From assembly GCA_964402015.1 (NCBI GenBank), contig CAYOAS010000001.1, positions 1 through 39,156 of the forward strand: a DNA stretch of 39,156 bases, read 5' to 3'. Made by a program: the position numbers and the translations under genes. Below, in pieces: positions 1-29,359 of this stretch. A model generated the notes under the pieces. That model ran no database searches. It was not told where the DNA came from and saw only the letters and a list, made by a program, of their open reading frames with translations. The stretch comes from an uncultured archaeon. Its GTDB lineage: Archaea > Iainarchaeota > Iainarchaeia > Iainarchaeales > JAGVWC01. Each line of letters opens with the position of its first letter. The first letter of the stretch is position 1.

Positions 1-1128
1 GTAATTGCGCGCGCGAAGGCAGAGGGCGCGATTATTATTGGCAAGACCGCGCAGGACGAATTTGGTTTTGGGACTTTTTCTGCAAACACTGGAATTGGCT
101 TTCAAGCGCCAAAAAACCCGTTTGATAGTGAACGGAGCTGTGGTGGTAGCAGTGGGGGAAGCGCTGGCTTTACTGCGCTAACGCAGTTCACTCATGTTTC
201 GATTGCGGAGAGCACTGGCGGCAGCATTGCCTGTCCCGCGAGTTTTTGCGGCGTTGCTGGTTTGACGCCAACTTATGGTCTGGTTTCAAGATATGGCTTG
301 ATTGATTTTGCAAATTCGCTTGATAAGATTGGTGCAATGGGGAAAACTGTTGCTGATGCAACAGCATTGCTGGAAACAATTGCGGGGCATGATGCAAAAG
401 ACAGCACTTCCTTGGAACAAGCAATTTCTTTTGATGGAAAGACTGAATTAAAAAACCTGAAAATTGGCGTGGTGAAAGAGTTTTTTGGAAAAGAAATTGA
501 TGGAAATGTTTCAAAGCTCTGCAGAAGCGCTTTGGAAAAGCTGGAAAAGAACGGGGCAAAACTTGTTGAATTATCCTTGCCGTTGAATTCTGAATTTGCT
601 GTTGCCGCTTATTATCTTCTTGCAACAACAGAGGCAAGCACTAACCTGGCAAAATTTTGCGGCATGCGCTATGGCGCGCACGAAAAATTGGAAGGAACGT
701 TTGACGAGTATTTCAGTTCAGTTCGGAGCAAGTGGTTTGGAAAAGAGTCAAAGCGCAGAATCATTCTTGGAACTTTCGCGCGCATGTCTGGCTATCGTGA
801 CGCTTATTATTTGCGCGCTGCAAAAGCGCGTTCTTTGCTCATTGAAGAATTCAAAAGGGCTTTCAAGAAAGTTGATGTTATTGCAAACCCTACAATGCCA
901 ATTGTTGCTCCAAGATTTTCTGAAATAGAAAAAATGCAGCCCTTGCAACAGTATGCAATGGACTTGTGCACTGTTCCGGCAAACCTTGCAGGATTGCCGC
1001 ACGTTTCAATCAATGCGGGTTTTTCTGAAAAAGAAAAATTGCCGATTGGATTAATGCTTACTGCTGGCCATTTGCGGGAAAGCAAACTGTTTTCTGCAGC
1101 GCAATATTTGGAGGGCGCATGCAAATGA
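1..1128 (+). CDS. gatA: Asp/Glu-tRNA amidotransferase subunit A (GatA), 5' end cut by the window edge
   Basis: Frame 1 is open from nt 1. Translation contains the amidase signature GGSSGGSAG and runs into the listed 262..1128 ORF. The stop TGA is at 1126-1128. Confidence 0.9.
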   Translation, partial: VIARAKAEGAIIIGKTAQDEFGFGTFSANTGIGFQAPKNPFDSERSCGGSSGGSAGFTALTQFTHVSIAESTGGSIACPASFCGVAGLTPTYGLVSRYGLIDFANSLDKIGAMGKTVADATALLETIAGHDAKDSTSLEQAISFDGKTELKNLKIGVVKEFFGKEIDGNVSKLCRSALEKLEKNGAKLVELSLPLNSEFAVAAYYLLATTEASTNLAKFCGMRYGAHEKLEGTFDEYFSSVRSKWFGKESKRRIILGTFARMSGYRDAYYLRAAKARSLLIEEFKRAFKKVDVIANPTMPIVAPRFSEIEKMQPLQQYAMDLCTVPANLAGLPHVSINAGFSEKEKLPIGLMLTAGHLRESKLFSAAQYLEGACK

Positions 1129-1883
1129 GCGAAGAATTACTTGTTGCTGTCAAAGCCGCAAAGGAAGCGGGAAAGATTATAATGAAAAGTTTCAGGAAAA
1201 GCAAGGTTGTTGGCAAGAAGACAAGGCGCGATATTGTAACAACCGCTGATTTGAAGGCAGATAAAGCAATTACCAAAATAATATCCAGGCATTTTCATTC
1301 GCACGATTTTTTGACTGAGGAAACAGCGAGGCAAGAGAAAAGTTCTGCTTATTGTTGGATTATTGACCCGATTGACGGGACAGCGCCTTACGCTGCCGGA
1401 TTGGCTGAATTCGGTATTTCAATTGCGCTGGCTTATAATGGCAAGCCTGTTGTTGGCGTTGTTTTCAAGCCTTTTTTCAAGGAACTTTTTTCTGCGGAAA
1501 AAGGCAAGGGAGCTTTCTTAAATGGCGAAAGAATTTCCGTTGGAAAAGAAAATTCCCTTGAAAACTCTTTCATCGGCGGCGACTGGGGGCACAATGAAGG
1601 GCAGAAATTTTTCGGGATACTGGAGAAACTTCTGCCGCTTGTGAGGTACATCCAAATGTCAGGCTCTGCAGTTAATGGCCTGACGAACGTTGCCTGCGGA
1701 AGAATGCAAGCTTATGTTCATAATGACATAAAGCCTTGGGATATTGCGGCAAGTTTTGTAATAATAAAAGAAGCAGGCGGAAAACTAACAAACTTTGAAG
1801 GTAAGGAATGGGAAATAAACGACAAAGAAGTGGTTGCGTCAAACGGTCTTTTGAATGAAAAAATCTTGGAGGCATTGAAATGA
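1119..1883 (+). CDS. Inositol monophosphatase / fructose-1,6-bisphosphatase family protein
   Basis: Contains the WIIDPIDGT metal-binding motif and WDIAA motif typical of the IMPase/SuhB family. ATG at 1125 (ATGA overlap with the gatA stop, GGAGG at 1110-1114) is an alternative start. Confidence 0.8.
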   Translation: MQMSEELLVAVKAAKEAGKIIMKSFRKSKVVGKKTRRDIVTTADLKADKAITKIISRHFHSHDFLTEETARQEKSSAYCWIIDPIDGTAPYAAGLAEFGISIALAYNGKPVVGVVFKPFFKELFSAEKGKGAFLNGERISVGKENSLENSFIGGDWGHNEGQKFFGILEKLLPLVRYIQMSGSAVNGLTNVACGRMQAYVHNDIKPWDIAASFVIIKEAGGKLTNFEGKEWEINDKEVVASNGLLNEKILEALK

Positions 1884-2635
1884 AACTGACTGTTCTTGGT
1901 TCCGGAATGCCATTGTCAGGCGCAGAAAGAGCGTGTTCCGGTTACTTGATAGAATCACAGGGCAATTTTGTTGTATTGGATTTAGGGTCTGGAACATTGC
2001 AGAACATGAAAAAAATAGTTCTGCCAAGCAAGCCTAGCGCATTGTTTTTCTCGCATTTTTCTCACGCAGACCATGTTGCAGATTTGCCGGCTTTTTTTCA
2101 TGCAAGAAAAATGATTTGCACGGAAATGCCGAACGAGGCAAGGCAGCTGAACATGTTTGGGCATAATGGCTTTGAATCATTCGTAAAAAAAGTTTTGGAA
2201 TTGTTTCCAGGGTTTGCGAAACTGCCTTTCCCTGTCTGGGTTGAAGAAATGCAGTATTCTTCAAAAAAAATTTTTGGTTTTACAGTAAAATCAAAACCAG
2301 TAAAGCATGCAGAGGATTCAATTGGTTTCAGGATTGAGGCAGAAGGAAAGGTTATTGCATACAGCGGTGACACAGAGTATTGCGATGAAATAATTGATTT
2401 GGGGCAGAACGCTGATTTGCTGGTTTTGGAATGCAGTTTTCCCGGAACAGAAAAGCACGAAGGGCACTTGAATGCAAGCGAATGCGGCGAGATTGCAAAA
2501 AAAGCAAATGCAAGGCGCTTGTTGCTGACACATTTTTATCCCGAAGCAGAAAAAGAGGATGTGAAGGCGCAGGCTGCAAAAGCGTTTGATGGAGAAATAA
2601 TTCTGGCAAAAGATTTGCTGGAGGTAGAGATATAA
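1880..2635 (+). CDS. MBL-fold metallo-hydrolase (RNase Z-like beta-lactamase superfamily)
   Basis: HFSHADH (HxHxDH) zinc motif. ATGA start/stop overlap with the upstream gene. Confidence 0.7.
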   Translation: MKLTVLGSGMPLSGAERACSGYLIESQGNFVVLDLGSGTLQNMKKIVLPSKPSALFFSHFSHADHVADLPAFFHARKMICTEMPNEARQLNMFGHNGFESFVKKVLELFPGFAKLPFPVWVEEMQYSSKKIFGFTVKSKPVKHAEDSIGFRIEAEGKVIAYSGDTEYCDEIIDLGQNADLLVLECSFPGTEKHEGHLNASECGEIAKKANARRLLLTHFYPEAEKEDVKAQAAKAFDGEIILAKDLLEVEI

Positions 2636-2682
2636 TGGGATTGCGAAGCAATCGCATGTTCGCCAGCCTTAGCCAAGGCTGC
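2636..2682 (+). repeat. Two-hairpin intergenic element, copy 1
   Basis: Stem TGCGA/TCGCA (2642-2656), linker CATGTTCGC, stem CAGCCTT/AAGGCTG (2664-2681). The segment TTCGCCAGCCTTAG..AAGGCTGC is nearly identical to 27460-27482. Confidence 0.5.
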
Positions 2683-2708
2683 GCAAAAGATTTGCTGACT
2701 GTGGAAGT

Positions 2709-4121
2709 ATGACAGAAAAGCGCATTATTATTGGTTTGGAAGTCCACGTGCAATTGAATACTGAAAGCAAGTTGTTCTGCGGCTGCCCGACGGTTCCTGC
2801 TGAAAACGAACCTAATTCTTCTGTCTGCGAAGTCTGCTTGGGAATGCCTGGAAGCAAGCCTGTTTTGAACAAAAAAGCATTGGATTACGCGATTCTTGCG
2901 GCGCTTGCGCTGAACTGCAAGGTAAATGAAGAATTCTTTTTTTCGCGCAAAACATATTTTTATCCCGACATGTCAAAAAACTTTCAGATTTCGCAGTATG
3001 AATTGCCGATTGCAACAAACGGCTTTTTGCAATTGCAAAGCGGAAAAAAAATCAGGATTAGGCGCGTGCATTTGGAAGAAGACCCTGCAGCGCTCGTGCA
3101 CGAGGCTGGAATGCAATCCAGCAATTATTGCCTGGTGGATTATAACCGCAGCGGAATTCCCTTGATTGAAATTGTCAGCGAGCCGGATATTGATAGCCCG
3201 AAAGAAGCAAGGGAATTCATGGATGCGCTGTTAAACGTTTTGAATTACTTGAATATTTTTGTGCAGGGTGTTGGAGTAATGAAAGCAGATGCAAACATTT
3301 CCATTGAAGGCAATGAACGGGCTGAAGTGAAAAACATTTCAAGTTTTAGAGGCATTGAAAAAGCATTAGAGTTCGAGGTAAACCGGCAAAGGGCATTGAT
3401 TGCAAAAGGCGAGCGAATAAAGCTGGAAACGCGCGGTTATATCGCAGAAAACGATTCAACTGTTTCATTGCGCTCGAAAGAAAGCGAGGACGATTATGGA
3501 TATATTACAGAGCCAGATTTGCCGAAAATATTGGTGAGCAAGGATTGGCTTGCTGAATTGAAAAAGCGCTTGCCAGAATTGCCGGAGCAAAAGGCAAAGC
3601 GCTTTGAAAAGGAATTCAAAATTAGCCAGGCTGATGCGCGCATTTTGTGCGGAAATTTTGCTTTGGGAAAACTGTTCGAGGGCGTGGCCACAAAAACAAA
3701 ACCAGAATTTGCAGCGCGGTTTTTGTCCCGCGAACTGTTGGCAATCGTCAATTACAACAATCTTGATTTGTCCTCGCTAAAGCTTGATGCTGGCGCGATT
3801 GCAGAACTGTTGGAGCTTGTTGTTTCTGGCAAGGTCAGCGAGAAGAACGCAAAAGAGGCAATGATAAAATATGCAAACGAAAAAATCCTGCCAGTTGATT
3901 TCCTTAAGCAAAACAATCTTTTGATTGATTTGAAGCAGGATGACGTGGTGCAGATCATTGAAAAAGTTTTGTCTGAAAACAAAAAGGCGTTTGAAGAATT
4001 GAAGGCGGGAAACAAAAAGAGCCTGAACTTTCTTGTTGGCTTGGTGATGCGCCAGACAAAAGCAAAGGCTGAACCGCGCACAATCCAAAAAATTATCGAA
4101 GAAAAAGCGAAACAAAATTGA
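2709..4121 (+). CDS. gatB: Asp/Glu-tRNA amidotransferase subunit B (GatB)
   Basis: 470 aa. N-terminus IIGLEVHVQLNTESKLFCGCP and a C-terminal GatB/YqeY-like tail are characteristic of GatB. Confidence 0.9.
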   Translation: MTEKRIIIGLEVHVQLNTESKLFCGCPTVPAENEPNSSVCEVCLGMPGSKPVLNKKALDYAILAALALNCKVNEEFFFSRKTYFYPDMSKNFQISQYELPIATNGFLQLQSGKKIRIRRVHLEEDPAALVHEAGMQSSNYCLVDYNRSGIPLIEIVSEPDIDSPKEAREFMDALLNVLNYLNIFVQGVGVMKADANISIEGNERAEVKNISSFRGIEKALEFEVNRQRALIAKGERIKLETRGYIAENDSTVSLRSKESEDDYGYITEPDLPKILVSKDWLAELKKRLPELPEQKAKRFEKEFKISQADARILCGNFALGKLFEGVATKTKPEFAARFLSRELLAIVNYNNLDLSSLKLDAGAIAELLELVVSGKVSEKNAKEAMIKYANEKILPVDFLKQNNLLIDLKQDDVVQIIEKVLSENKKAFEELKAGNKKSLNFLVGLVMRQTKAKAEPRTIQKIIEEKAKQN

Positions 4122-4538: not shown

Positions 4539-4928
4539 TCAAGGAATGCATTCAAAAGAATCCACTTTTATCAGTATCCAGTCAAGCAGTTCAATAAAAT
4601 CTGTTCCGATTGGTTGCACACCGCGCTTTACTATTTCTCCCCGGATTTTGGCATGGTTGGAATCACAGTTTATTTGCTCTTTCAAAATTAGAGGAATTCC
4701 GGTTGTTTGCTTTCCAAAAGGCTCATTAAGCAAATATCCTTTTTGTTCGCCTTCCCTGAATATCTGTTGTGGGTAAGGCATTGCCCCGCCAACATAGCCG
4801 GAAAGCTCTATTTTTTCGCCCTGTTGCTTTTCAAAGACACTGCGCCAGTCTGTTCCGGCATAGCCTCCGAGGCAACCAGAAAGCAAAATTATTGAAATTA
4901 TTGTAAACCCCACAAAATTGCCTTTCAT
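4539..4928 (-). CDS. Hypothetical lipoprotein / secreted protein
   Basis: 129 aa. N-terminal hydrophobic segment ending LLSGC (lipobox-like). ATG confirmed at 4928. Confidence 0.5.
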   Translation of the reverse strand: MKGNFVGFTIISIILLSGCLGGYAGTDWRSVFEKQQGEKIELSGYVGGAMPYPQQIFREGEQKGYLLNEPFGKQTTGIPLILKEQINCDSNHAKIRGEIVKRGVQPIGTDFIELLDWILIKVDSFECIP

Positions 4929-4981
4929 AAAATAACCTTGTTTTTTCTGTTAAAAAACAGATGCTTTCGGCTTTTGTACCA

Positions 4982-5042
4982 CGGCTTTACTAAAGCCGGC
5001 AAATATGCAACCTTTTCGCTGTTGCTCAAAGGTTGGATTTGC
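4982..5042 (-). repeat. Two-hairpin intergenic element, copy 2
   Basis: Stem CGGCTTTA/TAAAGCCG (4982-4998), linker GCAAATATG, stem CAACCTTT/AAAGGTTG (5008-5035). Outer pairing is GCAAAT/ATTTGC (4999-5004 with 5037-5042). Confidence 0.55.
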
Positions 5043-5046
5043 CTAA

Positions 5047-5104
5047 TGGCGTTGTAAGCCGGCAAATATGCAACCTCCTCATTTTGTTTGGAGGTTGGAT
5101 TTGC
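5047..5104 (-). repeat. Two-hairpin intergenic element, copy 3 (tandem to copy 2)
   Basis: Repeats AAGCCGGCAAATATGCAACC and GGTTGGATTTGC from copy 2. The main stem is CAACCTCC/GGAGGTTG (5071-5097). The second hairpin is degenerate (GGC/GCC with a 7-nt loop). Confidence 0.55.
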
Positions 5105-5346
5105 TTGGCAGCAAAAAACAACTCTAAAACCCAACTTGCAGTTGGACTTCGCCTGTTGGCGTTATTTTGACTGTTGTACTATTGGTTTTCTGCCTTTGTA
5201 CCAAAACCGCTTTATAAAGCGCAAGCGAAGGTAATTATAGCGGTTAAATACCCCATGAATCACCCCGGCAGCAGTTGTCCGCCAGGACAATTGTTTGCCC
5301 TTTTTCTTTTTTTCGTTCAAAAATGTTTCTTAGGAGGCTTTGTTTT

Positions 5347-5649
5347 ATGCAGATTTGGGATCCGTTAAGAATTTTTGACCAGTATGCGGTTTCTTTTGAC
5401 ACTTATATTACGCCGCTTGTTTTAGTTGTTTCATTGATATTGTTGGCGGTTTCAATCCGCGCCTACCAGAAAAACAGCACTAAGCGATTCCTTTTGATTA
5501 CAATTGCTTTTGCTTTTTTTGCTGCAAAATGGCTGCTTAGGCTGTTGGACCTTTTTATCAGCCCAGGAAACTTTTTTTCCATTGCAGCACAGGATGTTTT
5601 TGAATTAATGATTCTTTTCGCATTGTTCTTTGCATTATTCCAGAAATAA
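5347..5649 (+). CDS. Small integral membrane protein
   Basis: About 100 aa with three hydrophobic helices. ATG at 5347 follows AGGAGG at 5333-5338. The longer listed ORF start (5275) runs through hairpin-rich intergenic DNA. Confidence 0.5.
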   Translation: MQIWDPLRIFDQYAVSFDTYITPLVLVVSLILLAVSIRAYQKNSTKRFLLITIAFAFFAAKWLLRLLDLFISPGNFFSIAAQDVFELMILFALFFALFQK

Positions 5650-5670
5650 AATAGCGGGGCATGTTTTCTT

Positions 5671-6207
5671 ATGGAAAAGGCGTACGAAGCCTTGAATCTC
5701 GGAACGCGGAACAAGATATACCAAATAATCGAAGCCAGTCCCGGCTTGCACTTTCGCGAACTCCAAAGGCGTTCTGGCATGGCTGTTGGGGCAATGCAAT
5801 ACCATTTGGATACTTTGGCAAAAAACCATTTGATTCGCGTTGAAAAGCAGGGAAGGTTCAACCGCTATTTTTCAGTTCGCGGAGCACAATTGGGATTGCA
5901 AGAAAAAACAATGTCTTCCTTGCGCCAGGAAAGCGCGAGAAAAATAATAATTTTTTTGTTGGAAAAAAAGCAGGCAACAAATTTTGAAATCGCAACAGCA
6001 GTGCAATTGTCTGCCTCGACTGTTTCCTGGCAATTGGCAAAACTGGCTAAAGCAGGAATTGTTTCAGAAAAGCGCGCGGGAAAACAAAAATTATTCTTTG
6101 TCAACAACCTGCAGGAAACAGCACAACTGCTTGTCAGCTACAAAAAAACCTTTTTTGACTCGCTGGTTGACAATTTTGTTGACACTTGGCAAGAACTGGG
6201 AGAGTAA
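5671..6207 (+). CDS. Winged helix-turn-helix transcriptional regulator (ArsR/TrmB-like, two wHTH repeats)
   Basis: 178 aa with two ArsR-like segments (GLHFRELQRRSGMAVGAMQYHLDTL and NFEIATAVQLSASTVSWQLAKL). Confidence 0.6.
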   Translation: MEKAYEALNLGTRNKIYQIIEASPGLHFRELQRRSGMAVGAMQYHLDTLAKNHLIRVEKQGRFNRYFSVRGAQLGLQEKTMSSLRQESARKIIIFLLEKKQATNFEIATAVQLSASTVSWQLAKLAKAGIVSEKRAGKQKLFFVNNLQETAQLLVSYKKTFFDSLVDNFVDTWQELGE

Positions 6208-6288: not shown

Positions 6289-6828
6289 TTAGCTTTTCAT
6301 TGCCTTGAGCCCAACATATGCTAACAATAAACTTAGTGCAATTGCAATCAACTCACCAAAAACCAGAATGTTTAAACTTTCTTGAGTGCCAGTTGTAAGA
6401 AATTTGGTGAACATTGCTTGCACAAAACCAGAAATGAGTCCACCTAGGATTACTATGGCGGATACAAAAATTTGTAACCCTACTTGTTTCTTAGTTTCTT
6501 GATTAATTTTTCTCGGAATTTTTTCGTTTTTACTTTGCACTATCCGTTTGTTCTGGAAAAAGTTTTTTTGCAGAAAATCGGCAATTGTATTGAGAAATGC
6601 AAGCCCGTACAAAAGAAGAACTACGAATCCAACCACCACAAACAACGTTATCATTGACACTATTAAAACTGAGAAAACTAAAGTTAGACTTAAGGTAGTG
6701 CCTTCTTTCTCAAATGCCAAAGCAGTGATTACCCCCACTGTAGAAGAAATAATTACTAGTATTACAGGGTTTCTTAACACACGTTTTACAAGTTTATTGT
6801 CCATTGGCGGCATATAAGTATATGCCAT
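6289..6828 (-). CDS. Hypothetical multi-pass membrane protein
   Basis: Four or more hydrophobic helices. The start was moved to the internal ATG at 6828 (6813 and 6804 are alternatives). The first 10 codons of the listed ORF translate a tRNA-like fragment. Confidence 0.5.
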   Translation of the reverse strand: MAYTYMPPMDNKLVKRVLRNPVILVIISSTVGVITALAFEKEGTTLSLTLVFSVLIVSMITLFVVVGFVVLLLYGLAFLNTIADFLQKNFFQNKRIVQSKNEKIPRKINQETKKQVGLQIFVSAIVILGGLISGFVQAMFTKFLTTGTQESLNILVFGELIAIALSLLLAYVGLKAMKS

Positions 6829-6889
6829 CGAGGAAAATTTAAAAATCCAGTCCAAAAAAAGTATATGTATATATCCCCCTTTTTCGAAT

Positions 6890-6929
6890 AGCCCTGAGGA
6901 GATTCGAATTCTTGTCATAGGGTTTCTTA
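6890..6929 (-). pseudogene. Degenerate copy of tRNA-Gln exon 2 (3' half), possible att-site remnant
   Basis: Hand alignment to 7631-7670 gives 29 of 40 identities, covering acceptor 3' strand, T-loop, anticodon-stem 3' strand and the first intron bases. No matching 5' half is nearby and the T-stem is broken. Confidence 0.45.
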
Positions 6930-7629: not shown

Positions 7630-7866
7630 TAGCCCCAGAGAGATTCGAACTCTCGTCCCAGGGTCTCTTCTCCAAAGCATCCAAAGTTTTTCTTTTTCTG
7701 GGGAATTTATCCCCTGTTTTTCTTTTGGAAAGCCCGTAGACTTTTCTCTTTGCGGGATTAAAGTCCCGCGGTTTTTCTTTTGGAAAGACCGTAGACTTTT
7801 CTTTTTCGCAAAAAGAAAAGGCTTGGATTCAAAGCCCTGTATCCTTGGCCACTAGACTATGGGGCT
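7630..7866 (-). tRNA. tRNA-Gln (anticodon UUG) with a 164-nt intron at the canonical 37/38 position
   Basis: Exon 1 is 7829-7866 (AGCCCCA acceptor, D-arm, CAGGG stem, loop CUUUGA). Exon 2 is 7630-7664 (A, CCCTG, GGAC, GAGAG-TTCGAAT-CTCTC, TGGGGCT, A). The intron is 7665-7828. Confidence 0.85.
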
Positions 7867-12161: not shown

Positions 12162-14036
12162 TTAGTTTTTTGATATTTCTTCTTTCAGAATCCTGCTTAT
12201 CTGCTTGCCGGAAGCCTTGCCCCGAAGCTCTTTCATCAGGTCGCCCATTAAAGCAGACATTGCGCCAAGCTTTTTTTCCGAAACAATTTTTTTGTTTGTT
12301 TCAATCACGCGCCTTGCTATGCCGCGGATTTCTTCTTCGCCCGCACTGCCGGCACAGCTTGCAGAAACAATTTCTTCAAGCCTTTTTTGCGGTTCCTTGC
12401 TCCATGCTCCAAGCAACTGCAAAACTATTTCTTTTGGAATCTCTTTTTTCTTTACTGCAAAGACAATCTTTTCAATCATTTCGTCGGAAATTTTTTCCAC
12501 TGCAACATTGCCGCGCTTTAACTGCACTAGCCCTTCAAGCAACAGCCATGCTGCAAATGTTGCATCTGCTCCTTTTGTGGCAAGCGATTCGAAAAAAATC
12601 GCGTTGTTGTCAAGCTTCATTTTTTCAGCAAGTTGTTCTGACAAGCAGAATTTTTTAATGTACAATTGCTTTCTTTGCTCCGGCCAGAGTGGCAGGTTAG
12701 CGGACAATTTTTTCATCAGTTTTGCATCAACAATGATTTCCTTCAAATCTGTTTCCGGATACATTCGTGCTGCTCCTGGCAATGGACGCTGGTATTCAGT
12801 ATTGCAGTTTTCCAAGGCACCCCTTGTTTCTTCCGGCACTCCTTTCAAAGCCTGCTTGCATCTCTCAACAATTACATTCAGTGCCTCTACTGCCTTTTGC
12901 TTTTCCGCACAAACCAAAACAAAGGCATCATTTGATTCCAACCCAAGCAATGTTGCAACACTGTTTTTTTCCTCTTCAGAAACACCATAAGCCGGCAATT
13001 CGTCGCTATGTAATATTCCCTGCAATCCAGTGCGCGCTTTTACATTAGAAGCAAGTTCTGTCCCGAAGCGCCTGTCTGGCTGTATTTCTTTCCCAACAAT
13101 TCCTGCAAAGCCCTTCAATTTTATGCCAAAAACCCTCTTGCCGCGCAAAAACTTGCACTCAGTATTTTCAAAGAAACTGCTTGCATCTGTTGGATCAAAA
13201 AACAAGTCCTTTTCGGAAATTCCGCGTTCCAGCAATTCTTTTTTTATTTGCACAAGCGAAAACTGCCTTTGCATTTCCCTTCGCACAAAATCGTCAATGA
13301 ACTCCAAATCCTGCACTCCTTTTATTTCAACTCGCGCTCCGTCCCTGATTGAAATGTTTATGTCCTGCCTGATTGTGCCTAAGCCGCGTTTTGCCTTGCC
13401 GGTAATCCTGAACATTGCGCCGATTGCAAGCGCTGCATTTTTTACCTCTTCGGGCGAAAACAATTCCGGCGCAGTAGCCAATTCAATCAATGGAATTCCC
13501 AGCCTGTCAAGCCTGTAAATTATTTCTTTTTCGCTTTTGCCCATTGGCCGTGCTGCGTCTTCTTCTACTGCAATTGTTTGAATGCCGATTTCCTTTCCTC
13601 CAATGTCCAGCCGCCCGCCAACGCCAACAAGCGCAGTGCGCTGGAAGCCAGAAGTATTGGAACCGTCAATCACTGCTTTTCTCATTACGACAATTTCATC
13701 CAACACTCTCGCTTTTGCAAGAATGCAGACAGTCAAAACAACTTGCAATGCACCAGGGTTAAGCGGCATCGGCGGTTCTTCATCCAATTCAATAAGGCAA
13801 TTCACTTCTTTGAATGCCTCGTAAACATACGACAAATTCTTGTTGAATGCCTCAAGCGCCGCGGCATCAAACTCGCCAAGCTCTGAAGCAACCGGCCGCA
13901 ATTTCCTCGCAATAATAAAATCCGGTTTTTCCTCTTTCAAAATGCCCGGGCAACGGCAAAACAATTTGCCGGTATCCAATTGCTGGTGGCACTCCAAACC
14001 AGCTTTCAAACCAATTGCCTTAAAATCAAAATCCAT
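12162..14036 (-). CDS. gatE: Glu-tRNA(Gln) amidotransferase subunit E (archaeal GatE)
   Basis: 624 aa. N-terminus GLKAGLECHQQLDTGKLFCRCP, an inserted AspRS-like domain and a GatB-like tail. Confidence 0.9.
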   Translation of the reverse strand: MDFDFKAIGLKAGLECHQQLDTGKLFCRCPGILKEEKPDFIIARKLRPVASELGEFDAAALEAFNKNLSYVYEAFKEVNCLIELDEEPPMPLNPGALQVVLTVCILAKARVLDEIVVMRKAVIDGSNTSGFQRTALVGVGGRLDIGGKEIGIQTIAVEEDAARPMGKSEKEIIYRLDRLGIPLIELATAPELFSPEEVKNAALAIGAMFRITGKAKRGLGTIRQDINISIRDGARVEIKGVQDLEFIDDFVRREMQRQFSLVQIKKELLERGISEKDLFFDPTDASSFFENTECKFLRGKRVFGIKLKGFAGIVGKEIQPDRRFGTELASNVKARTGLQGILHSDELPAYGVSEEEKNSVATLLGLESNDAFVLVCAEKQKAVEALNVIVERCKQALKGVPEETRGALENCNTEYQRPLPGAARMYPETDLKEIIVDAKLMKKLSANLPLWPEQRKQLYIKKFCLSEQLAEKMKLDNNAIFFESLATKGADATFAAWLLLEGLVQLKRGNVAVEKISDEMIEKIVFAVKKKEIPKEIVLQLLGAWSKEPQKRLEEIVSASCAGSAGEEEIRGIARRVIETNKKIVSEKKLGAMSALMGDLMKELRGKASGKQISRILKEEISKN

Positions 14037-18387: not shown

Positions 18388-19362
18388 TCAGTTTATTTTT
18401 GTCAATTCTTTGAGTTTTTTTATTAGTCTTAAGTCTTCGGTTTTCTCGTCCCATTGGGCAATGATTTCGTGTATTTCTTTTTTTAATTGCTTCTCTGAAA
18501 GTTTTGCGGGTTCTTTACAGGCAACATTTTTTGATAAAAGGAAGCCGTAAAGTTCTTTTAGCGAGTTTTTTTGTCTGAATTCAATGACTTTAACGCCAAT
18601 CTTTCTTGCTTCTTCAATCATCATGTCTGTTAATTTGTCGATGAGGAATAAATCTACTTTTCTTGCCAATGCTTCGTCTCCAATTTCTGGGTTTCCTATG
18701 CCCAACAATTTCAGCTCTATTGTCAGGGGCTTTTTATCCTTGGAAAAAATAATGGCGTCTATTTCTCTGTTTCCAACCAATCCTTTTCTTTTCATGTCAT
18801 CAAATAAAAGAACATAATCTTCTTCGTTGATTTTTAAAAGTTTGAAGATTGTGAATAGCAATGTTTTTTCTGTTTGTTTTCCGACTTCGCTCCAAGCACC
18901 GCCTTGAATAGTCAATCTCATTGCAGAAATTGTGTTTACAAAAATAATGCTTTCAATTTCATCAAGCTCAATTGTTTCTCCTTTATTTCTAATGCTGACG
19001 CGTAATTGATATTCGGTTTTTTTAAAATTCTTAAGAAGGAGCTGCAACGCGGCAATGTTCTTTTTCCCTATATCTAAACAAATTTCTTTTGTGGAAATTC
19101 CGCCAGTCATATTTTTTACTGTTTTGTCGTTTATGCCGCCAAACCAGAGCAGTTTGAATTTGTTCTCTTTGCCCGGCTTGTTTTTCGTGTCTTCTAAGAG
19201 TTTGTCTATCCAGTTGCCGCCGTTCTTTTTATAGTTAAAAATGTCTGCCGTGAGTTCTTGTGCTTTTTCTATGAATCGCTCATTAATCGTGGCTAGAACA
19301 AAAGTCCTGTAATCTTTGCCGCTTAAAATGGAAAAAATAATTTCTGACATCAGTTGTTTCAT
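18388..19362 (-). CDS. Putative type II restriction endonuclease (PD-(D/E)XK)
   Basis: 324 aa. ATGA overlap with the upstream methyltransferase. Candidate catalytic motif IDAII...TIELK (D-x14-E-x-K). Confidence 0.5.
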   Translation of the reverse strand: MKQLMSEIIFSILSGKDYRTFVLATINERFIEKAQELTADIFNYKKNGGNWIDKLLEDTKNKPGKENKFKLLWFGGINDKTVKNMTGGISTKEICLDIGKKNIAALQLLLKNFKKTEYQLRVSIRNKGETIELDEIESIIFVNTISAMRLTIQGGAWSEVGKQTEKTLLFTIFKLLKINEEDYVLLFDDMKRKGLVGNREIDAIIFSKDKKPLTIELKLLGIGNPEIGDEALARKVDLFLIDKLTDMMIEEARKIGVKVIEFRQKNSLKELYGFLLSKNVACKEPAKLSEKQLKKEIHEIIAQWDEKTEDLRLIKKLKELTKIN

Positions 19363-20738
19363 TTTTTCGCCTTTATTTTTATGTCCTCAGGAATTGTTTT
19401 AATTGCATCTGTTATTCTTTCGATGTTTTTCAATAATCTTTCTTTTGTTGGGGTTTTTCCCCTTGTGGATGATCCCTGCTTTTTTTGTATCTGTTCTTTG
19501 AAAGAAGCCATCTGTTGTTTTACTTTTTGTGCTATGACCTCATCATTGCTTGCGTTAGCGCTGCAATCTGAAATTTTTCTTAATACTACAATATATTCAT
19601 CATCTATTCGCCCAACATCCGCGTTTGTGTATTTTCTTGTTTTGTCAATATTCCTAAAATACGTCTTCACATGTTCAAATCCGATTTCTTTGGCAAAAGC
19701 AATAAAGTATTTGTGGCTTTCTATCAGTTCGTATTCTAAACTTGAATTGCCTACAACAATAGCGCAGGTTTTTCCAGTTTTTAAGACCCTGTTCATTTCA
19801 ATCATTGACCTTAACATATCGCCCAAATATTCTGAAAGAAGCCTGAAGCGGTTGGTTATGAAATGTGAGTGTCCTCCGATTTCGTGCTTTCTAAATAACT
19901 CAAAGTCCATGCCCAGCCAAAGCATGTTGTACATATGCGTTCTATAATAGTCTAAAGCATTGACGTATGGGGGGGATGTAACAATAAGGTCAACGGTGTT
20001 GTTATCTACTTCCAGTTTTCTTGCATCTCCCTGAATAAGTTTTACATCTGGTTGCAGAAGAACGATTTTTGAAATTTCCAATATTTCTTTTTTCATTGAT
20101 TGAGTTTTTCTAATAAACGAGTTTTCAATGTCTGGCCCATTGCCATTTTCTACTAATCCCCATATTGTTGATGAAAGGGCAACCTGGCAAAAGTCAAACA
20201 AGTCATATTTTTTTTCTTCTTTTAGTTCCAATACCATTTCTTTTATTGCCTCTAACTTTACAATAGTTTCTTTATCAAATAGCTTGCTTATTGTGCGGTT
20301 TGGCAAATCATTTACTCTGTCTTCAATTCTTTTATGATCCAAATCCAAGTATTTTTTTGTTCTTGAAATTTTTTTATCTAAATATTCGAAATCACCAGGT
20401 GAAATTAAAGTTGTTTTGACTTTGCTTATTAGCACTGCCAATGGATTGAAATCGTTTCCTATGGCGTTTCTATTATTTAGAAAGCACTCTACAATCGTTG
20501 TTCCGCAACCGCAAAACGGGTCAAGAACAATATCTCCTTTTTTTGTGAGTAGGTTGATGAATGTTAATGGTATTTGTGGTATGAATCGTGCGGGATAAGA
20601 ATGAAATTTATGCGATAAATATTGTGTGGTTGCCTCTTTGAAATCCCAATTTATCTTGTCCAATTTTTCTATTAAAGAATCGCTTTTTTCTGTTTTGTTG
20701 ATTGCTAATTGTACCATGCTGCTAACTTGTCCGTTCAT
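19359..20738 (-). CDS. N4/N6 DNA methyltransferase
   Basis: DPFCGCGTT (motif I, aa 73-81) preceded by HSYPARFIPQIP. TSPPY (motif IV, aa 254-258). Confidence 0.8.
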   Translation of the reverse strand: MNGQVSSMVQLAINKTEKSDSLIEKLDKINWDFKEATTQYLSHKFHSYPARFIPQIPLTFINLLTKKGDIVLDPFCGCGTTIVECFLNNRNAIGNDFNPLAVLISKVKTTLISPGDFEYLDKKISRTKKYLDLDHKRIEDRVNDLPNRTISKLFDKETIVKLEAIKEMVLELKEEKKYDLFDFCQVALSSTIWGLVENGNGPDIENSFIRKTQSMKKEILEISKIVLLQPDVKLIQGDARKLEVDNNTVDLIVTSPPYVNALDYYRTHMYNMLWLGMDFELFRKHEIGGHSHFITNRFRLLSEYLGDMLRSMIEMNRVLKTGKTCAIVVGNSSLEYELIESHKYFIAFAKEIGFEHVKTYFRNIDKTRKYTNADVGRIDDEYIVVLRKISDCSANASNDEVIAQKVKQQMASFKEQIQKKQGSSTRGKTPTKERLLKNIERITDAIKTIPEDIKIKAKK

Positions 20739-20825: not shown

Positions 20826-22145
20826 TTATTCTGTCGGTGTAATAGAGTCCAACGGTGTTCGCTCGCTGATTTCTCCGCGCAAATTTGTTGCCATTAACCG
20901 CTTGATTTCTTCCTTGTTCTTGTAATTGCCCAGCAGCCATGCAAGCTTTACAAAAGCTGTTTCTGGCAGCATGTCCTCGCAGAAGATTATGCCTGCTTCG
21001 TTCAGCTTTCGGAGGTTTGTGTAAACAGTCGGGTGCACTCTGCCGTAAAGGCACTGCGTTGTCATTGCTATAACAACTCCTTTTTTTAGCAGTTGCTTTA
21101 GCGCTAAAAAGTTTTTCTGGTTTTCTTTTGTGTTTACCGGCGCGTGCCCCAAACCAGTGCCTTCTATTACCAGCCCTTTCATTTTTTTGAATACTAAAAA
21201 TTGTTCCGGTTTCATTTCTGGATGGGTTTTCAGCAATGCAACCTTGTTTTCCATTTTGTCTTTTAGCAAGAATTTTCCATCTTGTTTTGGCAGTTCTTTC
21301 AGGAATTTTATTTCTCTTGTTTCAAAATTCACGCGCGCTATTGGCGAATCATTTATTGCCTTGAAAGCATCCCTGCGCGAACTGTGCATCTTTCTTGTTT
21401 TGCAAGCAGGCAATATTACGCAGTTTTTGTCGTCGCTTGTTTCATGCATGCAGATTGCGACTCCGGCAAAGCCGCTTCTTGCAATGAATTCTGCTGCACA
21501 AACAAGGTTTTCGGCTGCGTCTGTTGAACCGCGGTCAGTGCTGCGCTGTGCGCCAACCACAATAACCGGAATAGTGCAATTTTCAAGAATGAAAGAGAGC
21601 GCTGCTGCTGTGAATGCGAGCGTGTCTGTTCCATGGCCGATAATTATGCCTTTTGCGCCTTTTTTTATTTCTTCGGCGACAGCGTTTGCTATTTTTTTGT
21701 AATCCGAAAAAAGTATGTCTTCGCTCATAATGTTGCTGACGAAAACAGATTCAATGTTTGCTATTTTTGTTATTTCCGGAAACATTGTAATGAAATCTTC
21801 CACTTTGAAAGAGGCATATACTCCGCCTGTTTGGTAGTTTACTCTGCTTGCAATAGTGCCGCCGGTGTGCAGTATTGAAATTGTCGGCAGTTCCGGGTTT
21901 TTTTTCACTTCGATTGTTTTTGCCTTGCCAACGCTTTTTCCTTCACTGATTTTTTTTATTGAAGTTATTTTTTCTATCAATAATCCTGCATTGTAACCAT
22001 TCTTGAGTTTCAACATCAAAACGTTTTCCTCGCGCGTTGGGATAATGTATCCTTCAAGCGTTTGGCTGTCTGTTTTTACAGTAACGAAATCGCTTTCCTT
22101 GAGCTTTTTCTTTTTCAGGAATTCATTCAATTTCATGGCAATCAT
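20826..22145 (-). CDS. gatD: Glu-tRNA(Gln) amidotransferase subunit D (archaeal GatD, asparaginase-like)
   Basis: HTGGTIAS and GHGTDT asparaginase motifs. The start was set to ATG 22145, about 23 nt from an AATAAAAAAA TATA-like tract. The listed ORF begins at TTG 22160. Confidence 0.9.
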   Translation of the reverse strand: MIAMKLNEFLKKKKLKESDFVTVKTDSQTLEGYIIPTREENVLMLKLKNGYNAGLLIEKITSIKKISEGKSVGKAKTIEVKKNPELPTISILHTGGTIASRVNYQTGGVYASFKVEDFITMFPEITKIANIESVFVSNIMSEDILFSDYKKIANAVAEEIKKGAKGIIIGHGTDTLAFTAAALSFILENCTIPVIVVGAQRSTDRGSTDAAENLVCAAEFIARSGFAGVAICMHETSDDKNCVILPACKTRKMHSSRRDAFKAINDSPIARVNFETREIKFLKELPKQDGKFLLKDKMENKVALLKTHPEMKPEQFLVFKKMKGLVIEGTGLGHAPVNTKENQKNFLALKQLLKKGVVIAMTTQCLYGRVHPTVYTNLRKLNEAGIIFCEDMLPETAFVKLAWLLGNYKNKEEIKRLMATNLRGEISERTPLDSITPTE

Positions 22146-22212
22146 TGTTTTTGAAGGCAAACCTTTTTTTATTCGTTTTGCCTATTATTAAACACTGTTT
22201 TGACGTGATTAT

Positions 22213-24584: not shown

Positions 24585-26459
24585 TTATTTCTGCGCTTGC
24601 TCTTCGCTTGCAGCGCTCGTGGCAATCTTTCTCTGGTTTTCAAACATTTGAATTATTTCTTTTACTGTTGTTGCCTGTTCCGGTTTTTTGTCCGAGCGCA
24701 TTTGTATCATCCGCGGAAAGCGCAGTGCAAATCCCTCTTCGCTGTCCTTTTTTTTGCCAGCGGTGTGGATTGGGCTTTTTGTTATTTCGTCCGCGCGCAC
24801 TTCAATGACATGTTTTGGTTCGCACCAAAAATCAGGCTCAATCTCTGAATCAACGCGCGCCGGCTTGCTTGAACGCTTGATTTTGCTGAGCATTTCTTCC
24901 AAATCTGTCAGGGTTTGCTCGCTCATTCCGGTTCCAATCTTTGCAATGCTCTTGAACATGTCTTCTCCCTCGTCGTAAACTGCAGTCAACAATCCTCCCA
25001 AGCCGAATTCTGTTCTTTTTCCCCTGCCCTTGAAATAACCGATTATTACTGCGTCGATGGAATCAGACAATTCGCCCTTGTACGAGCGCTTTAATTTTAT
25101 CCACGCAAATTTTCTCGCTCCTGCAATGTATCTTGCATTCAGGTCTTTTGCGATTATTCCTTCCAATCCTTTCGAAACATTGTCTTCGAAAAACTTGTTC
25201 ATTTCTTTTGCAGAATCCGTAACAATGCTTTTTGTTGCTTCTATTACCGCGCCTTTTTTGATAATTTTTTCCAGCGCTTGCCGGCGCTCTTTGAAAGGCA
25301 ATGGCATAATGTTTTTTCCGTTCAGGTACATCAAATCGAAGGCAAAAAGCTTCAGGGGATATTCTGCGGCTTTTTCTTTTATGTCATATTTTCTCTTGCG
25401 CTGTATTGTCACCTGAAAAGGAAAATATTCCCCTGTTGTTTCATTGACTGCAAGGGCTTCGCCTTCAAAGATTGCTGTTTTCGCGTCAATCTGTTTTTTT
25501 ACTGCGTCAATTATTTCCGGAAACATGCTTGTCATTTTTTCCATGTTCCTGCTGAAAATCTCAACTTTTTCATTATTCTTATGAATCGCCAAACGCAACC
25601 CATCGTATTTTGCTTCTACAGCACACTTTCCCAATTTTTCAATTATTTCTTCCGCGCTTGGCAATCGTTCTGCAAGAGTCGGCCTGATTGGAATGCCGGG
25701 CATTATTTCAATTTTTTCCAGTCCCTTCAATCCGTTTTCTTTCAGCGTTTGTGCAATCGCGCCCAAATCAGAATGAATATTGTATTTTTCCTCAATTATT
25801 TCCCGCAGTCGAATTTTCACGCGCAAATCAAATTCTTTTTTTCGCTTCTCCGGGTTTTTTTCTTTCAGATTTTCCTCGATTTCTTTGGTTATTTTTGGAT
25901 TCTTTTCCACAAACTCTTTTGAATAAAGGATTGCAAGCGAATCCATTATTGTCGGGTCGCCAATGCCCAGGCGCAGGTTTTCCATTACTATCCTTACAAC
26001 AAACCTTGCCTCCAAGGGATTGGCGCTGTTCAATAATTCCGCCAACAACCGGATTTTTGAATCCTGGCTTCCGGCGCCGGAAACATTTGCAATCTTTTGA
26101 AGATTATCAAATACTTTTTTCAGCGTCAATTTTTCCGAAAACAATGCCAATTGTTTTTTCTTTTTCAACAATTCCTCTGCAACAAAACCCAAATCTCCCT
26201 TTTGCTTGTACAAGCGCTCGACTTCCCCTTTTGTATATCCTGCCGCGCTAGCGATTGCTTCTTGCACAAAGCTTTCCCCCATTCCGATATTCACGCCCTC
26301 AAACTGTGGCGCCAACAATCCCTGTGCCAGAAAAACAAACCTTGCTGTTTCATCCGCGCGCATTTGCCTGAAGAATTCCACCAAATAATCCGCCATATCC
26401 AGCCTCGAACTGGCTTTTTCCACGCGCTCGAACAATTCAGCAATCAAAGCAAAATCCAT
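24585..26459 (-). CDS. lig: ATP-dependent DNA ligase
   Basis: Motif I AVEAKYDGLR (KxDG adenylation lysine), EGIIAK and a C-terminal OB-fold region. ATG at 26459 (MDFALIAELFERVE). Confidence 0.9.
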   Translation of the reverse strand: MDFALIAELFERVEKASSRLDMADYLVEFFRQMRADETARFVFLAQGLLAPQFEGVNIGMGESFVQEAIASAAGYTKGEVERLYKQKGDLGFVAEELLKKKKQLALFSEKLTLKKVFDNLQKIANVSGAGSQDSKIRLLAELLNSANPLEARFVVRIVMENLRLGIGDPTIMDSLAILYSKEFVEKNPKITKEIEENLKEKNPEKRKKEFDLRVKIRLREIIEEKYNIHSDLGAIAQTLKENGLKGLEKIEIMPGIPIRPTLAERLPSAEEIIEKLGKCAVEAKYDGLRLAIHKNNEKVEIFSRNMEKMTSMFPEIIDAVKKQIDAKTAIFEGEALAVNETTGEYFPFQVTIQRKRKYDIKEKAAEYPLKLFAFDLMYLNGKNIMPLPFKERRQALEKIIKKGAVIEATKSIVTDSAKEMNKFFEDNVSKGLEGIIAKDLNARYIAGARKFAWIKLKRSYKGELSDSIDAVIIGYFKGRGKRTEFGLGGLLTAVYDEGEDMFKSIAKIGTGMSEQTLTDLEEMLSKIKRSSKPARVDSEIEPDFWCEPKHVIEVRADEITKSPIHTAGKKKDSEEGFALRFPRMIQMRSDKKPEQATTVKEIIQMFENQRKIATSAASEEQAQK

Positions 26460-26556
26460 AAGAACCAAACAATTATTGCACTTTTTGCATTAAAAAAACA
26501 ATAGTCTGCGCGCCAAACAAGCAAGCTTTAAAACAAAAATAAGCTTTTTTTTGTGC

Positions 26557-26965: not shown

Positions 26966-27226
26966 TTAATCCGCTTTTTCAAGCCACTTTTTTAGCGCGC
27001 TATGCTGCAAAGAAACAGAATCGCATTTAATGTCTTTTGCAAGCCCCACAAGGCTTTCAATACTGCCTTTTCTTTTTCCCCTTGTTTCAATCCTGTTCAT
27101 CCAATCATCGATTGCAACTGTTGCAGCCTTGCTGATTGCACCTTTCCTAAAACCAAAACTCTTCATTGCAAGCTGCCTGAATCTTGCAACAGCCCCTTCT
27201 TTCAACTGTATCCTCAATGTTTCCAA
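26966..27226 (-). CDS. VapB-like antitoxin
   Basis: 86-aa ORF immediately upstream of the PIN gene. TTG start. GCTAT(A/T)T direct repeats lie in its upstream region. Confidence 0.5.
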   Translation of the reverse strand: METLRIQLKEGAVARFRQLAMKSFGFRKGAISKAATVAIDDWMNRIETRGKRKGSIESLVGLAKDIKCDSVSLQHSALKKWLEKAD

Positions 27227-27421
27227 TCAAACCACCATATAGCAATATAGCCAAATAGCCTTAAAAATGCCATCGCCAAAAAAACACAAAACCACCCTGT
27301 GCCGGAAAATGACAATCTATTCTCTTGCGGGCAAGCTGTTTCTTGAATAGTTAGCAATTTAAGCCTTCTATTCAACAAATTTTTCAACAAGTTTATGCGG
27401 TTTTAACAACTATGCCGCCAG

Positions 27422-27481
27422 GCATATTCAACCTCTGAGCAAAGCGAAGAGGTTGCATTTTCGCCAGCCTTAGTAAGGCTG
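27422..27481 (+). repeat. Two-hairpin intergenic element, copy 4, upstream of tRNA-Pro
   Basis: Stem CAACCTCT/AGAGGTTG (27429-27455), linker CATTTTCGC, stem CAGCCTTA/TAAGGCTG (27465-27481). About 82 percent identical by hand alignment to the reverse complement of 4982-5042. Confidence 0.55.
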
Positions 27482-27496
27482 CTTTAGTAAAACCGA

Positions 27497-27648
27497 GGGG
27501 ATGTAGTATAGCTTGGTCCAGTATTCTCGCTTTGGGCCGCAGCTTTTTTCGGGGAAAAAACCTGGGAAAAAAAGGTTTTTTGCTGTTGCAAAAAACAATT
27601 GCCTGTGCAAAAAAGCGAGTGACCCCGGTTCAAATCCGGGCATCCCCA
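27497..27648 (+). tRNA. tRNA-Pro (anticodon UGG) with a 77-nt intron at 37/38
   Basis: GGGGATG/CATCCCC acceptor, CTCGC/GCGAG anticodon stem, loop TT-TGG-G. Intron 27537-27613. T-arm CCCGG-TTCAAAT-CCGGG. Confidence 0.85.
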
Positions 27649-27663
27649 ATTCAAGCATTTTTT

Positions 27664-27756
27664 GGGGCTGTAGTCTAGCCTGGTAGGATTCTAGCATGGG
27701 GAACCTTTACAGTATCCAGAATGCTAGCGACCCGAGTTCAAATCTTGGCAGCCCCA
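27664..27756 (+). tRNA. tRNA-Pro (anticodon GGG) with a roughly 20-nt intron
   Basis: GGGGCTG/CAGCCCC acceptor and CTAGC/GCTAG anticodon stem enclosing 27 nt (7-nt loop plus 20-nt intron, about 27702-27721). T-arm CCGAG-TTCAAAT-CTTGG. Position 32 would be A, so the anticodon call is less certain. Confidence 0.75.
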
Positions 27757-27800
27757 TTTTTCAATTAATTTATTAAACTGGTTCGGCGCAAGGTGATTAA

Positions 27801-29297: not shown

Positions 29298-29359
29298 GCC
29301 GCCTTAAGGCGGTGCAAATGCGCAACCTTCCAGTTGAGCATGCCTAACGGCAAAGGTTA
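29298..29359 (-). repeat. Two-hairpin intergenic element, copy 5
   Basis: 14-bp palindrome CCGCCTTAAGGCGG (29299-29312), linker TGCAAATGCG, stem AACCTT/AAGGTT (29324-29358) with a 23-nt loop. Same order as copies 2 and 3. Confidence 0.4.

Follow-up and report, generated by a model that had tools for sequence, protein, structure and literature searches.

At the left end of the archaeal DNA analysed here (the window, a stretch of 39,156 nucleotides (nt)), the gene for a metallo-β-lactamase (MBL) fold hydrolase is followed on the same strand by gatB. The gene order gatC-gatA-(IMPase)-MBL-gatB is kept in relatives, and in the window the genes overlap as ATGA at gatA/IMPase (1125-1128) and at IMPase/MBL (1880-1883). 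Between MBL and gatB lies an element of 47 nt, called c1, that can fold into two hairpins and is bordered on both sides by a version of the MBL gene end; the right-hand version overlaps gatB in the same ATGA fashion, as is evident from the sequence itself. Homologues of MBL, gatB and ProRS are labelled Candidatus Diapherotrites or 'ainarchaeum', and the window was therefore assigned to the DPANN archaea; tRNA genes with long introns also mark it as archaeal.

The two versions of the MBL end, copy A at 2606-2635 (GCAAAAGATTTGCTG GAGGTAGAGATATAA) and copy B at 2683-2712 (GCAAAAGATTTGCTG ACTGTGGAAGTATGA), are offset by 77 nt. Translation of copy B would give AKDLLTVEV-stop, with its TGA (2710-2712) overlapping the gatB ATG (2709-2711). 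An original prediction made on this DNA had described the repeat correctly, the first halves of the two copies agreeing at 15 of 15 positions and the next 15 nt at eight. The exact 15-mer repeat was reached in none of 300 shuffles of the flanks and obtained an E value of 0.004 in a BLAST comparison within the window; the 15-mer is itself partly palindromic (GCAAA-AGA-TTTGC). The agreement of the second halves (A-3' and B-3') is not above background, as MBL 3' ends of different lineages match one another at 6-13 of 15 positions through the similar peptides that they encode, and the distribution of the differences over the repeat (none in the first halves vs seven in the second) is uneven (Fisher p = 0.006). 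A-3' matches the MBL ends of other lineages at 8-10 of 15 positions and is no closer to B-3' than to those, while B-3' matches the single MBL end of a relative lacking the element (L029) at 13 of 15 positions, GTGGAAGTATGA included, and keeps the ATGA overlap type that is found in L029 and L005; this makes B-3' the relic of the native MBL end. Judged by these alignments, the convincing duplication is one of 15 nt, covering the AKDL[LM] codons, and the target duplication of about 30 nt that had been proposed was not upheld, the second halves agreeing no better than MBL ends from separate lineages do. The statement that both copies are read in the same frame needs qualification as well: deletion of 77 nt does restore one MBL frame, but the absolute frames differ by that offset.

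Copy A closes the MBL gene at exactly the length usual for its family: homologues are mostly 249-253 amino acids (aa) long and end in A[KE]DL[LM]xVxV, and both length and motif are preserved. In addition, A-3' carries a Shine-Dalgarno-like GGAGGT 9 nt ahead of the ATG at 2635, and copy A together with the TAATG that follows from it looks like a complete native junction with a 1-nt overlap.

The MBL/gatB junction was compared across nine lineages, the window included, and proved to be empty in seven and filled in two. The relatives are cited by their labels, with the identity of their MBL to that of the window. Empty junctions with a 1-nt overlap (TGATG or TAATG) were present in L004 (85%, TGATG), L001-3 (71%, TGATG) and L025 (70%, TAATG), those with a 4-nt overlap (ATGA) in L005 (76%), L029 (72%, with 78% for gatB) and L026 (69%), and the junction of L027/28 (53%) has neither gap nor overlap. 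On this comparison the 47 nt at 2636-2682 are an insertion, because seven related lineages have no gap at the junction, and direct overlap of MBL and gatB, the common state in relatives, is supported as the ancestral one. The empty site anticipated by the original prediction was thus found; its former overlap of 4 nt stands as regards direct overlap, but the overlap may be of 1 or 4 nt, and L027/28 have none. Among the junctions retrieved, the filled state is restricted to the window and to L006-L009 (four metagenomes, 69%). In L006-L009 the junction reads TAA, then TGGGATTGCGTAGCAATCGCATGTTCGCCAGCCTTAGTCAAGGCTGT GCAGAAGACCTTATGGAAGTGAGCGTCTGA, then ATG, i.e., the same element at the same position followed by an MBL-end-like AEDLMEVSV-stop; in L006 the first halves of copies A and B match at 12 of 15 positions and the second halves at 6 of 15. 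A search through gatB homologues retrieved the empty junction of L029 and a contig that is cut inside gatB (L030), and gained no further filled junction. As a separate observation on gatB, the gene is fused to an N-terminal tRNA_edit (YbaK-like) domain in L027 (10755-12623) and L028 (3374-5242), giving a protein of 622 aa, and the same fusion was seen in several other gatB homologues of the search.

The inserted element belongs to a multi-copy family, as the original prediction had it. In c1, hairpin 1 (GATTGC-GAA-GCAATC, 2639-2653) and hairpin 2 (CAGCCTT-AGCC-AAGGCTG, 2664-2681) are joined by the linker GCATGTTCGC (2654-2663), and the 47 nt have a fold energy of -23.5 kcal/mol (z = -2.9). No copies of the 47 nt within three mismatches are present in the window; the family was exposed through a 19-nt core, as GCATNTTYGCC plus hairpin 2 recurs at 27455 on the plus strand and twice in tandem at about 5000-5110 on the minus strand. 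The full unit is about 63 nt long and consists of hairpin 0, ATCC, hairpin 1, GCATNTTYGCC and hairpin 2, with the consensus TTGCC-GNAA-GGCAA for hairpin 0, commonly CAACCTCC-GAA-GGAGGTTG for hairpin 1, GCATATTCGCC for the linker and CAGCCTT-AGT-AAGGCTG for hairpin 2. With respect to this unit c1 is a variant or truncated member, in which hairpin 0 is unrecognisable and the sequence of hairpin 1 is its own. A covariance model (R1) that was built from six non-junction copies recovered both junction copies (27-29 bits, E about 1e-6 to 5e-6), matching that of the window at 2624-2682 with 27.1 bits and an E value of about 2e-6 to 5e-6.

In total, the window holds five family copies in 39 kb (Table 1). 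In c4 a normal hairpin 2 is missing, and hairpin 0 of c3 takes its 5' arm from the c4 linker; the tandem formed by these two copies folds with z = -6.8. Further members, all in contigs of Diapherotrites/Iainarchaeum-type DPANN archaea, are found in L001 (two), L017 (three), L020, L021, L022 and, as a weak match, L060; a metagenome scan provided members in L017, L020, L021 and L022, and R1 added two more in L017, two in L001 and the reversed copy of the window. Across 13 copies, 94.4% of the cells in the alignment are paired, and in 14 of 20 pairs both partners vary, a level of covariation that none of 500 shuffles reached, with 22-53% pairing in slid controls. G-T/T-G pairs (11) outnumber A-C/C-A pairs (3), which weakly suggests folding of the sense strand, and the form in which the family acts is probably a folded single strand, the sense strand being weakly preferred. 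Although a pseudoknot of the linker with the hairpin-1 loop (CGAA:TTCG) can be drawn in many copies, it was rejected, as the loop change in L006 abolishes it and it is sterically doubtful in a triloop.

Table 1. Features of the MBL/gatB junction and family copies in the window.
Feature	Position	Strand	Description
MBL-fold hydrolase gene	1880..2635	+	RNase Z/BN-like; Lactamase_B_2; 251-aa open reading frame (ORF), terminates in repeat copy A
Direct repeat, left copy (A-5')	2606..2620	+	GCAAAAGATTTGCTG, codes for AKDLL; 15/15 to 2683-2697
A-3'	2621..2635	+	GAGGTAGAGATATAA, codes for EVEI-stop; current MBL end
Bridging ORF, 25 codons	2635..2712	+	MGLRSNRMFASLSQGCAKDLLTVEV-stop; TAATG start, ATGA end
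Element copy c1 (insertion by comparison with relatives)	2636..2682	+	47 nt; fold, covariance model R1
Direct repeat, right copy (B-5')	2683..2697	+	GCAAAAGATTTGCTG
B-3'	2698..2712	+	ACTGTGGAAGTATGA, TVEV-stop; relic of native MBL end
gatB	2709..4121	+	470 aa; ORF with GatB_N and GatB_Yqey homologues
Copy c3	4981..5050	-	R1 70 bits; upstream of minus-strand ORF 4928..4539
Copy c4	5058..5114	-	R1 47.5 bits, filters off; in tandem with c3
Copy c2	27412..27482	+	R1 82 bits; all three hairpins
Reversed copy	29298..29353	-	R1 24.4 bits, E about 1e-5 to 3e-5

The family was looked for in several other resources. Rfam, with its families of small ribozymes, C/D and H/ACA sRNAs and CRISPR repeats, gave no match at E <= 10 for 2400-2900, and only tRNAs and sub-threshold noise for 27000-27800 and 4900-5700. 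In species-representative genomes the family pattern produced five chance matches, all in bacteria, the lineage itself being apparently absent from that collection, and among viral contigs two patterns had no matches, while a looser one had 28 chance matches without the family structure. No description of a three-hairpin family of about 63 nt was found in the literature.

The two filled lineages are not sisters in the MBL tree. Between the window and L006 the proteins are 42% (IMPase), 69% (MBL) and 58% (gatB) identical, and 4-fold sites in the flanking genes are 27-41% identical, about 26% being expected at saturation. Against these values stands the identity of the junction element, which is 44/47 (94%). 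The high identity ends at the edges of the element (plus TATAA); no recombination tract extending into MBL was detected between the two, the last 90 nt of the gene being 66% identical. Insertion as originally proposed therefore holds, but not in its simple form, as the same filled allele is present in a non-sister lineage whose flanks are near saturation. Either horizontal spread, or an ancient origin combined with strong constraint and repeated loss, may account for this, and the two appear about equally likely. In the first case there would have been two gains, or a horizontal, homology-guided spread, at the conserved AKDL[LM] codon block, which would explain the same site, the 15/15 core in the window and the native B-3'; the identity of A-3' between the filled lineages, 10/15 against 44/47 for the element (p = 0.016), fits poorly with it. 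In the second case one ancient gain would have been followed by strong purifying selection on the element and by precise excision between the flanking repeats. Precise losses are mechanistically easy between direct repeats that flank hairpins.

Taken together, we consider it probable that c1 is a variant of a dispersed, structure-defined repeat lying inside a former overlap of the MBL stop and the gatB start. Gain and loss of the family are also apparent at other sites. CAATTGTTTGCC and CTTTTTCT adjoin directly in the window (0 nt) but are separated in L001 by about 98 nt, which include a family copy, and at a syntenic site upstream of a 129-aa ORF a tandem pair in the window corresponds to a single, diverged copy in L001; furthermore, copies occupy intergenic DNA in both orientations. 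From these differences we infer that the family undergoes gain and loss in the manner of a non-autonomous REP/MITE-like element.

A number of observations weigh against this interpretation. Flanking duplications above chance were present at none of ten other family copies, which showed chance-level or low-complexity matches at most, so that a long target duplication cannot be taken as a hallmark of family movement; the duplication can no longer be offered as direct proof of mobility, and this outcome partly coincides with what the original prediction itself had named as refuting it. Terminal inverted repeats were not seen in 13-15 aligned copies, the unit ends TTGCC... and ...AAGGCTG not being inverted repeats, and no transposase, integrase or HUH gene was found among the 30 window ORFs scanned. 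The core TTCGCCAGCCTTAGTAAGGCTG hardly varies between genomes in which synonymous sites are saturated, and about 10 of 12 copies are oriented towards the start of a gene downstream; both traits are suggestive of a host function rather than of selfish DNA. Furthermore, L059, a relative with a ProRS 74% identical, has no copy in 21 kb with three tRNAs. At the junction itself, MBL with A-3' as its end still has the native length and the xVx[VI]-stop pattern; A-3' must come from some MBL end, but did not arise as a recent copy of B-3'. Finally, both histories of the filled allele are costly: two independent gains at one nucleotide with the same flanks would need a hypothetical targeting mechanism, and one ancient gain needs at least five precise losses as well as gene conversion for the 15/15 identity.

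How the insertion could be tolerated in an operon of overlapping genes is suggested by a bridging ORF of 25 codons, missed in the original prediction, whose ATG overlaps the MBL TAA and whose TGA overlaps the gatB ATG. L006-L009 hold an equivalent 25-codon ORF (MGLRSNRMFASLSQGCAEDLMEVSV-stop), of which the first 16 residues are identical to the window. The AKDLL codons flank the element on both sides as the 15-nt direct repeat, copy A gives MBL a normal-length (251 aa) C-terminus and a stop codon, and copy B, the old MBL end, overlaps the gatB ATG as before. Ribosomes terminating on MBL may then be passed to gatB via the bridging ORF, across a gap of 73 nt; this appears to be its simplest role, the other operon junctions being ATGA overlaps. 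At the level of the mRNA, the hairpins would probably be a structured spacer between MBL and gatB, translational coupling being kept by the bridging ORF. Among 120 MBL homologues, none was found to have an in-frame C-terminal extension with peptide motifs encoded by the element.

Most family copies face the start of a gene downstream of them. Six are located 0-15 nt upstream of a tRNA in the same orientation (c2 in the window, two in L017, and those in L020, L022 and L060), although not all tRNA genes are preceded by a copy, and others are located 40-70 nt upstream of protein genes (c3/c4 in the window, two in L001 and, by eye, the one in L021). Two reversed copies abut gene 3' ends, one after a tRNA in L017 and one in the window after ProRS; the latter lies within the 66 nt that separate ProRS (27801-29297) from an epimerase gene, its hairpin 2 abutting the ProRS stop. 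Copy c2 lies 14 nt upstream of an intron-bearing tRNA (27497-27648), beyond which a second tRNA and then ProRS are found. It was considered whether the hairpin-2 loop (TTAGTAA) might serve as a TATA box, but its register is inconsistent, with about 24 nt to the tRNA 5' end in three copies and about 8 nt in two.

Some further features of the ProRS regions may be recorded here. Both tRNAs directly upstream of ProRS in the window (27497-27648 and 27664-27756, plus strand) carry introns, and with anticodon regions TGG and GGG, read by eye, both look like tRNA-Pro. The tRNA-tRNA-ProRS block is bracketed by two inverted family copies with hairpin 2 inward. In L060, a c1-like copy abuts the tRNA that precedes ProRS; this copy represents a subtype resembling c1 (TTGCGAAGCA...TTTTTCGCAAGCCTT...AAGGCTT). 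The region upstream of that tRNA (1150-1420) contains a unit of about 60 nt (aagccttttttcctgttggaaaaaagccttgggaaaatcgcgcctgatgacgca) repeated in tandem, together with a duplicated 3' fragment of a tRNA.

It is tentatively conceivable that the unit of about 63 nt represents an undescribed class of functional RNA (a 5' leader of tRNAs and other genes) in Iainarchaeota-type DPANN archaea and that, separately or additionally, the junction copy is part of a 77-nt 'homing' cassette. Such a cassette would comprise the AKDLL-codon core, a replacement MBL end and the element, and would spread between distant genomes by recombination at the conserved codon block; as it would bring its own stop codon, ribosome-binding site and bridging ORF, the invaded operon would stay working.

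A stricter form of the RNA explanation, which we regard as unlikely, holds that the family is no mobile DNA at all but an RNA module with a function, inherited vertically as a 5' leader or small RNA, that is produced together with tRNAs or other transcription units and set free, e.g., when RNase P cuts at the 5' end of the tRNA. In that case, the copy at the junction would be a domesticated, operon-internal instance that was selected in two lineages and lost in others. The strong covariation with its sense-strand G-U excess, the six cases in which tRNA 5' ends are closely abutted, a T-run after hairpin 2 in several copies and the conservation of the core despite saturated synonymous sites are all in line with this proposal, as are two shared positions, one upstream of the pre-ProRS tRNA in the window and L060 and the other upstream of the 129-aa ORF in the window and L001, the latter with compensatory sequence change. 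However, two copies (window 29298-29353; L017 4640-4694) run antisense to the genes around them, presence/absence differences occur at two sites in addition to the tandem fused copy, and some tRNAs, including all of those in L059, are without a copy. In the window and L001 a TATA-like box, identified by eye, stands between the element and the gene, which would place the element outside that transcript.

It has also to be considered whether selection acts on the 25-codon ORF, as a micro-protein or an obligatory bridging ORF, with the hairpins being secondary, an explanation that we find improbable. The ORF is intact in both filled lineages, starting at TAATG and ending at ATGA or TGA-ATG, its first 16 residues are the same in both, and GGAGGT stands 9 nt ahead of its ATG. 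All three nucleotide differences between the elements of the window and L006-L009 are synonymous in its frame (P ~0.008), and its B part keeps A-x-D-L-[LM]-x-V-x-V despite 11 differences in 30 nucleotides, including a change of TTG to CTT, both Leu. On the other hand, these comparisons involve two sequences, the same three differences are all at unpaired positions too (P ~0.047), and the synonymous positions of the element are too conserved for coding constraint alone (P ~0.004). Moreover, the other family copies are non-coding with a variable hairpin 1, and the start and stop overlaps follow automatically from a duplicated junction.

Even less probable is a scar of site-specific or Campbell-type recombination, in which a small DNA (A-3', the element and the 15-nt core) would have joined the AKDLL codons of the host and left an identical core between one foreign and one native gene end. 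The contrast between the 15/15 core and the 8/15 of the adjacent halves, the native B-3' with its similarity to L029, the resemblance of A-3' plus TAATG to the 1-nt-overlap junctions of L025 and L006A, and the occupation of the same site in two lineages can be accommodated by this scenario. Nevertheless, the window ORFs scanned include no recombinase, the other family copies are without such cores and the core has decayed in L006 (12/15), while the contrast between a poorly conserved A-3' and a well-conserved element is unlike a single, recently transferred unit. An archaeal bulge-helix-bulge intron of 77 nt (2621-2697), after removal of which the mature MBL would end in copy B and overlap gatB, was rejected and has next to no probability: although the 15-mers of the window, offset by exactly 77 nt, can pair as 3 bp, an AAA bulge, 4 bp, an AAA bulge and 3 bp, the central helix has two G-U and two A-U pairs, the geometry is trivial for a repeated half-palindrome, L006 has no equivalent motif, and the unspliced mRNA already codes for an MBL of normal length.

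Compared to known systems, the family is a small structured dispersed repeat in the broad class of repetitive extragenic palindromic (REP), miniature inverted-repeat transposable (MITE) and Rickettsia palindromic (RPE) elements, its three-hairpin layout and its placement at tRNA 5' ends being unusual. REP/BIME (REPIN) sequences are likewise short, multi-copy palindromes defined by structure, extragenic and in both orientations; they are sometimes located between operon genes just past a stop codon, are conserved beyond neutral expectation, and have neither terminal inverted repeats nor target duplications. They differ in that the present family belongs to archaea (DPANN) and has a strong tendency to lie at tRNA 5' ends, with three hairpins in fixed order over about 63 nt and conserved single-stranded linkers, and in that no RAYT-type transposase was seen in a search covering the 39 kb plus flanks. 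Adjacent inverted doublets as in REP/REPIN were not found; inverted copies here flank whole genes (tRNA-tRNA-ProRS in the window, one tRNA in L017) and the c4-c3 tandem is direct.

With MITEs the family has in common that it is non-coding and multi-copy and that its presence varies between relatives; in addition, insertion within an operon is tolerated as stop and start signals are re-created, and a direct repeat flanks the junction copy. Unlike MITEs, it is without terminal inverted repeats, without flanking repeats at the other copies and without a known parent insertion sequence, and the MITE Chunjie, at 178-235 bp (PMC10969869), is considerably longer than the 47-63 nt found here. RPEs, too, are palindromic repeats that enter or abut protein genes whose frames stay open; however, they are about 150 bp long, occur in unrelated lineages and become in-frame parts of host proteins, whereas the element described here lies between two genes and is read only as a separate 25-codon ORF. 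Where integrative elements enter gene 3' ends, e.g., those of tRNA genes, the attachment sites show an identical core between a replacement gene end and the displaced native end. The junction resembles this general scheme, with its identical core, replacement end on one side and displaced native end on the other, but the 62 nt between the cores contain no genes and no integrase was seen.

Several other features of the window were noted. It codes for both tRNA-dependent amidotransferases, GatCAB (gatA...gatB) and GatDE (gatE, gatD), with coordinates 12162-14036 (-), 20826-22160 (-) and 1-4121 (+). A CfrBI-type restriction endonuclease gene adjoins an N6/N4 DNA methylase gene at 18388-20738 (-), forming a restriction-modification pair. 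An unannotated tRNA-Gln(TTG)-like gene is located at 7631-7865 (-), with a 5' part AGCCCCATAGTCTAGTGGCCAAGGATACAGGGCTTTGAATCC, a 3' part ...GGGACGAGAGTTCGAATCTCTCTGGGGCTA and, between them, an intron of about 165 nt, within which a stretch of 41 nt is directly repeated (7711-7751 and 7766-7806); the gene was missed by ARAGORN and Rfam, and its orthologue in L006 (8291-8363) is intronless. At 6889-6928 (-), AAGAATTCGAATCTCCTCAGGGCTA resembles a tRNA T-arm plus acceptor 3' strand, is 78% identical to 7630-7669 and overlaps the start of an ORF (6289-6918); this stretch may be a tRNA fragment or half-gene. The tRNA-Ser reported by ARAGORN at 26390-26480 (-) was not confirmed by Rfam, overlaps the start of a DNA-ligase ORF (24585-26468) and is probably a false positive. 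Finally, a non-coding block is common to three lineages (window ~5205-5310 on the plus strand, L001 10225-10320 and L029 ~2560-2660) and consists of a palindromic, TATA-like GCTTTATAAAGC, followed by TTAAACACCCCATGAATCACCC and by the hairpin GGACAATTGTTTGCC with a T-run. It has no Rfam match and is a candidate small RNA or bidirectional promoter region.

The genomes of DPANN archaea are tiny and tightly packed, overlapping and translationally coupled genes are the rule in them, and dispersed repeats have hardly been described. In such genomes, the present locus shows a conserved family of structured repeats that is absent from Rfam and favours the 5' side of tRNAs, and for which a ready covariance model is now provided for annotation. 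It also offers a case in which insertion into an overlapping gene pair would have been made harmless by a short duplication and a bridging mini-ORF. The 94% identity of the 47 nt at one junction, in the presence of saturated neutral sites, points to either horizontal, site-directed spread or unusually strong constraint, and either answer would inform on the genome dynamics of uncultivated archaea.

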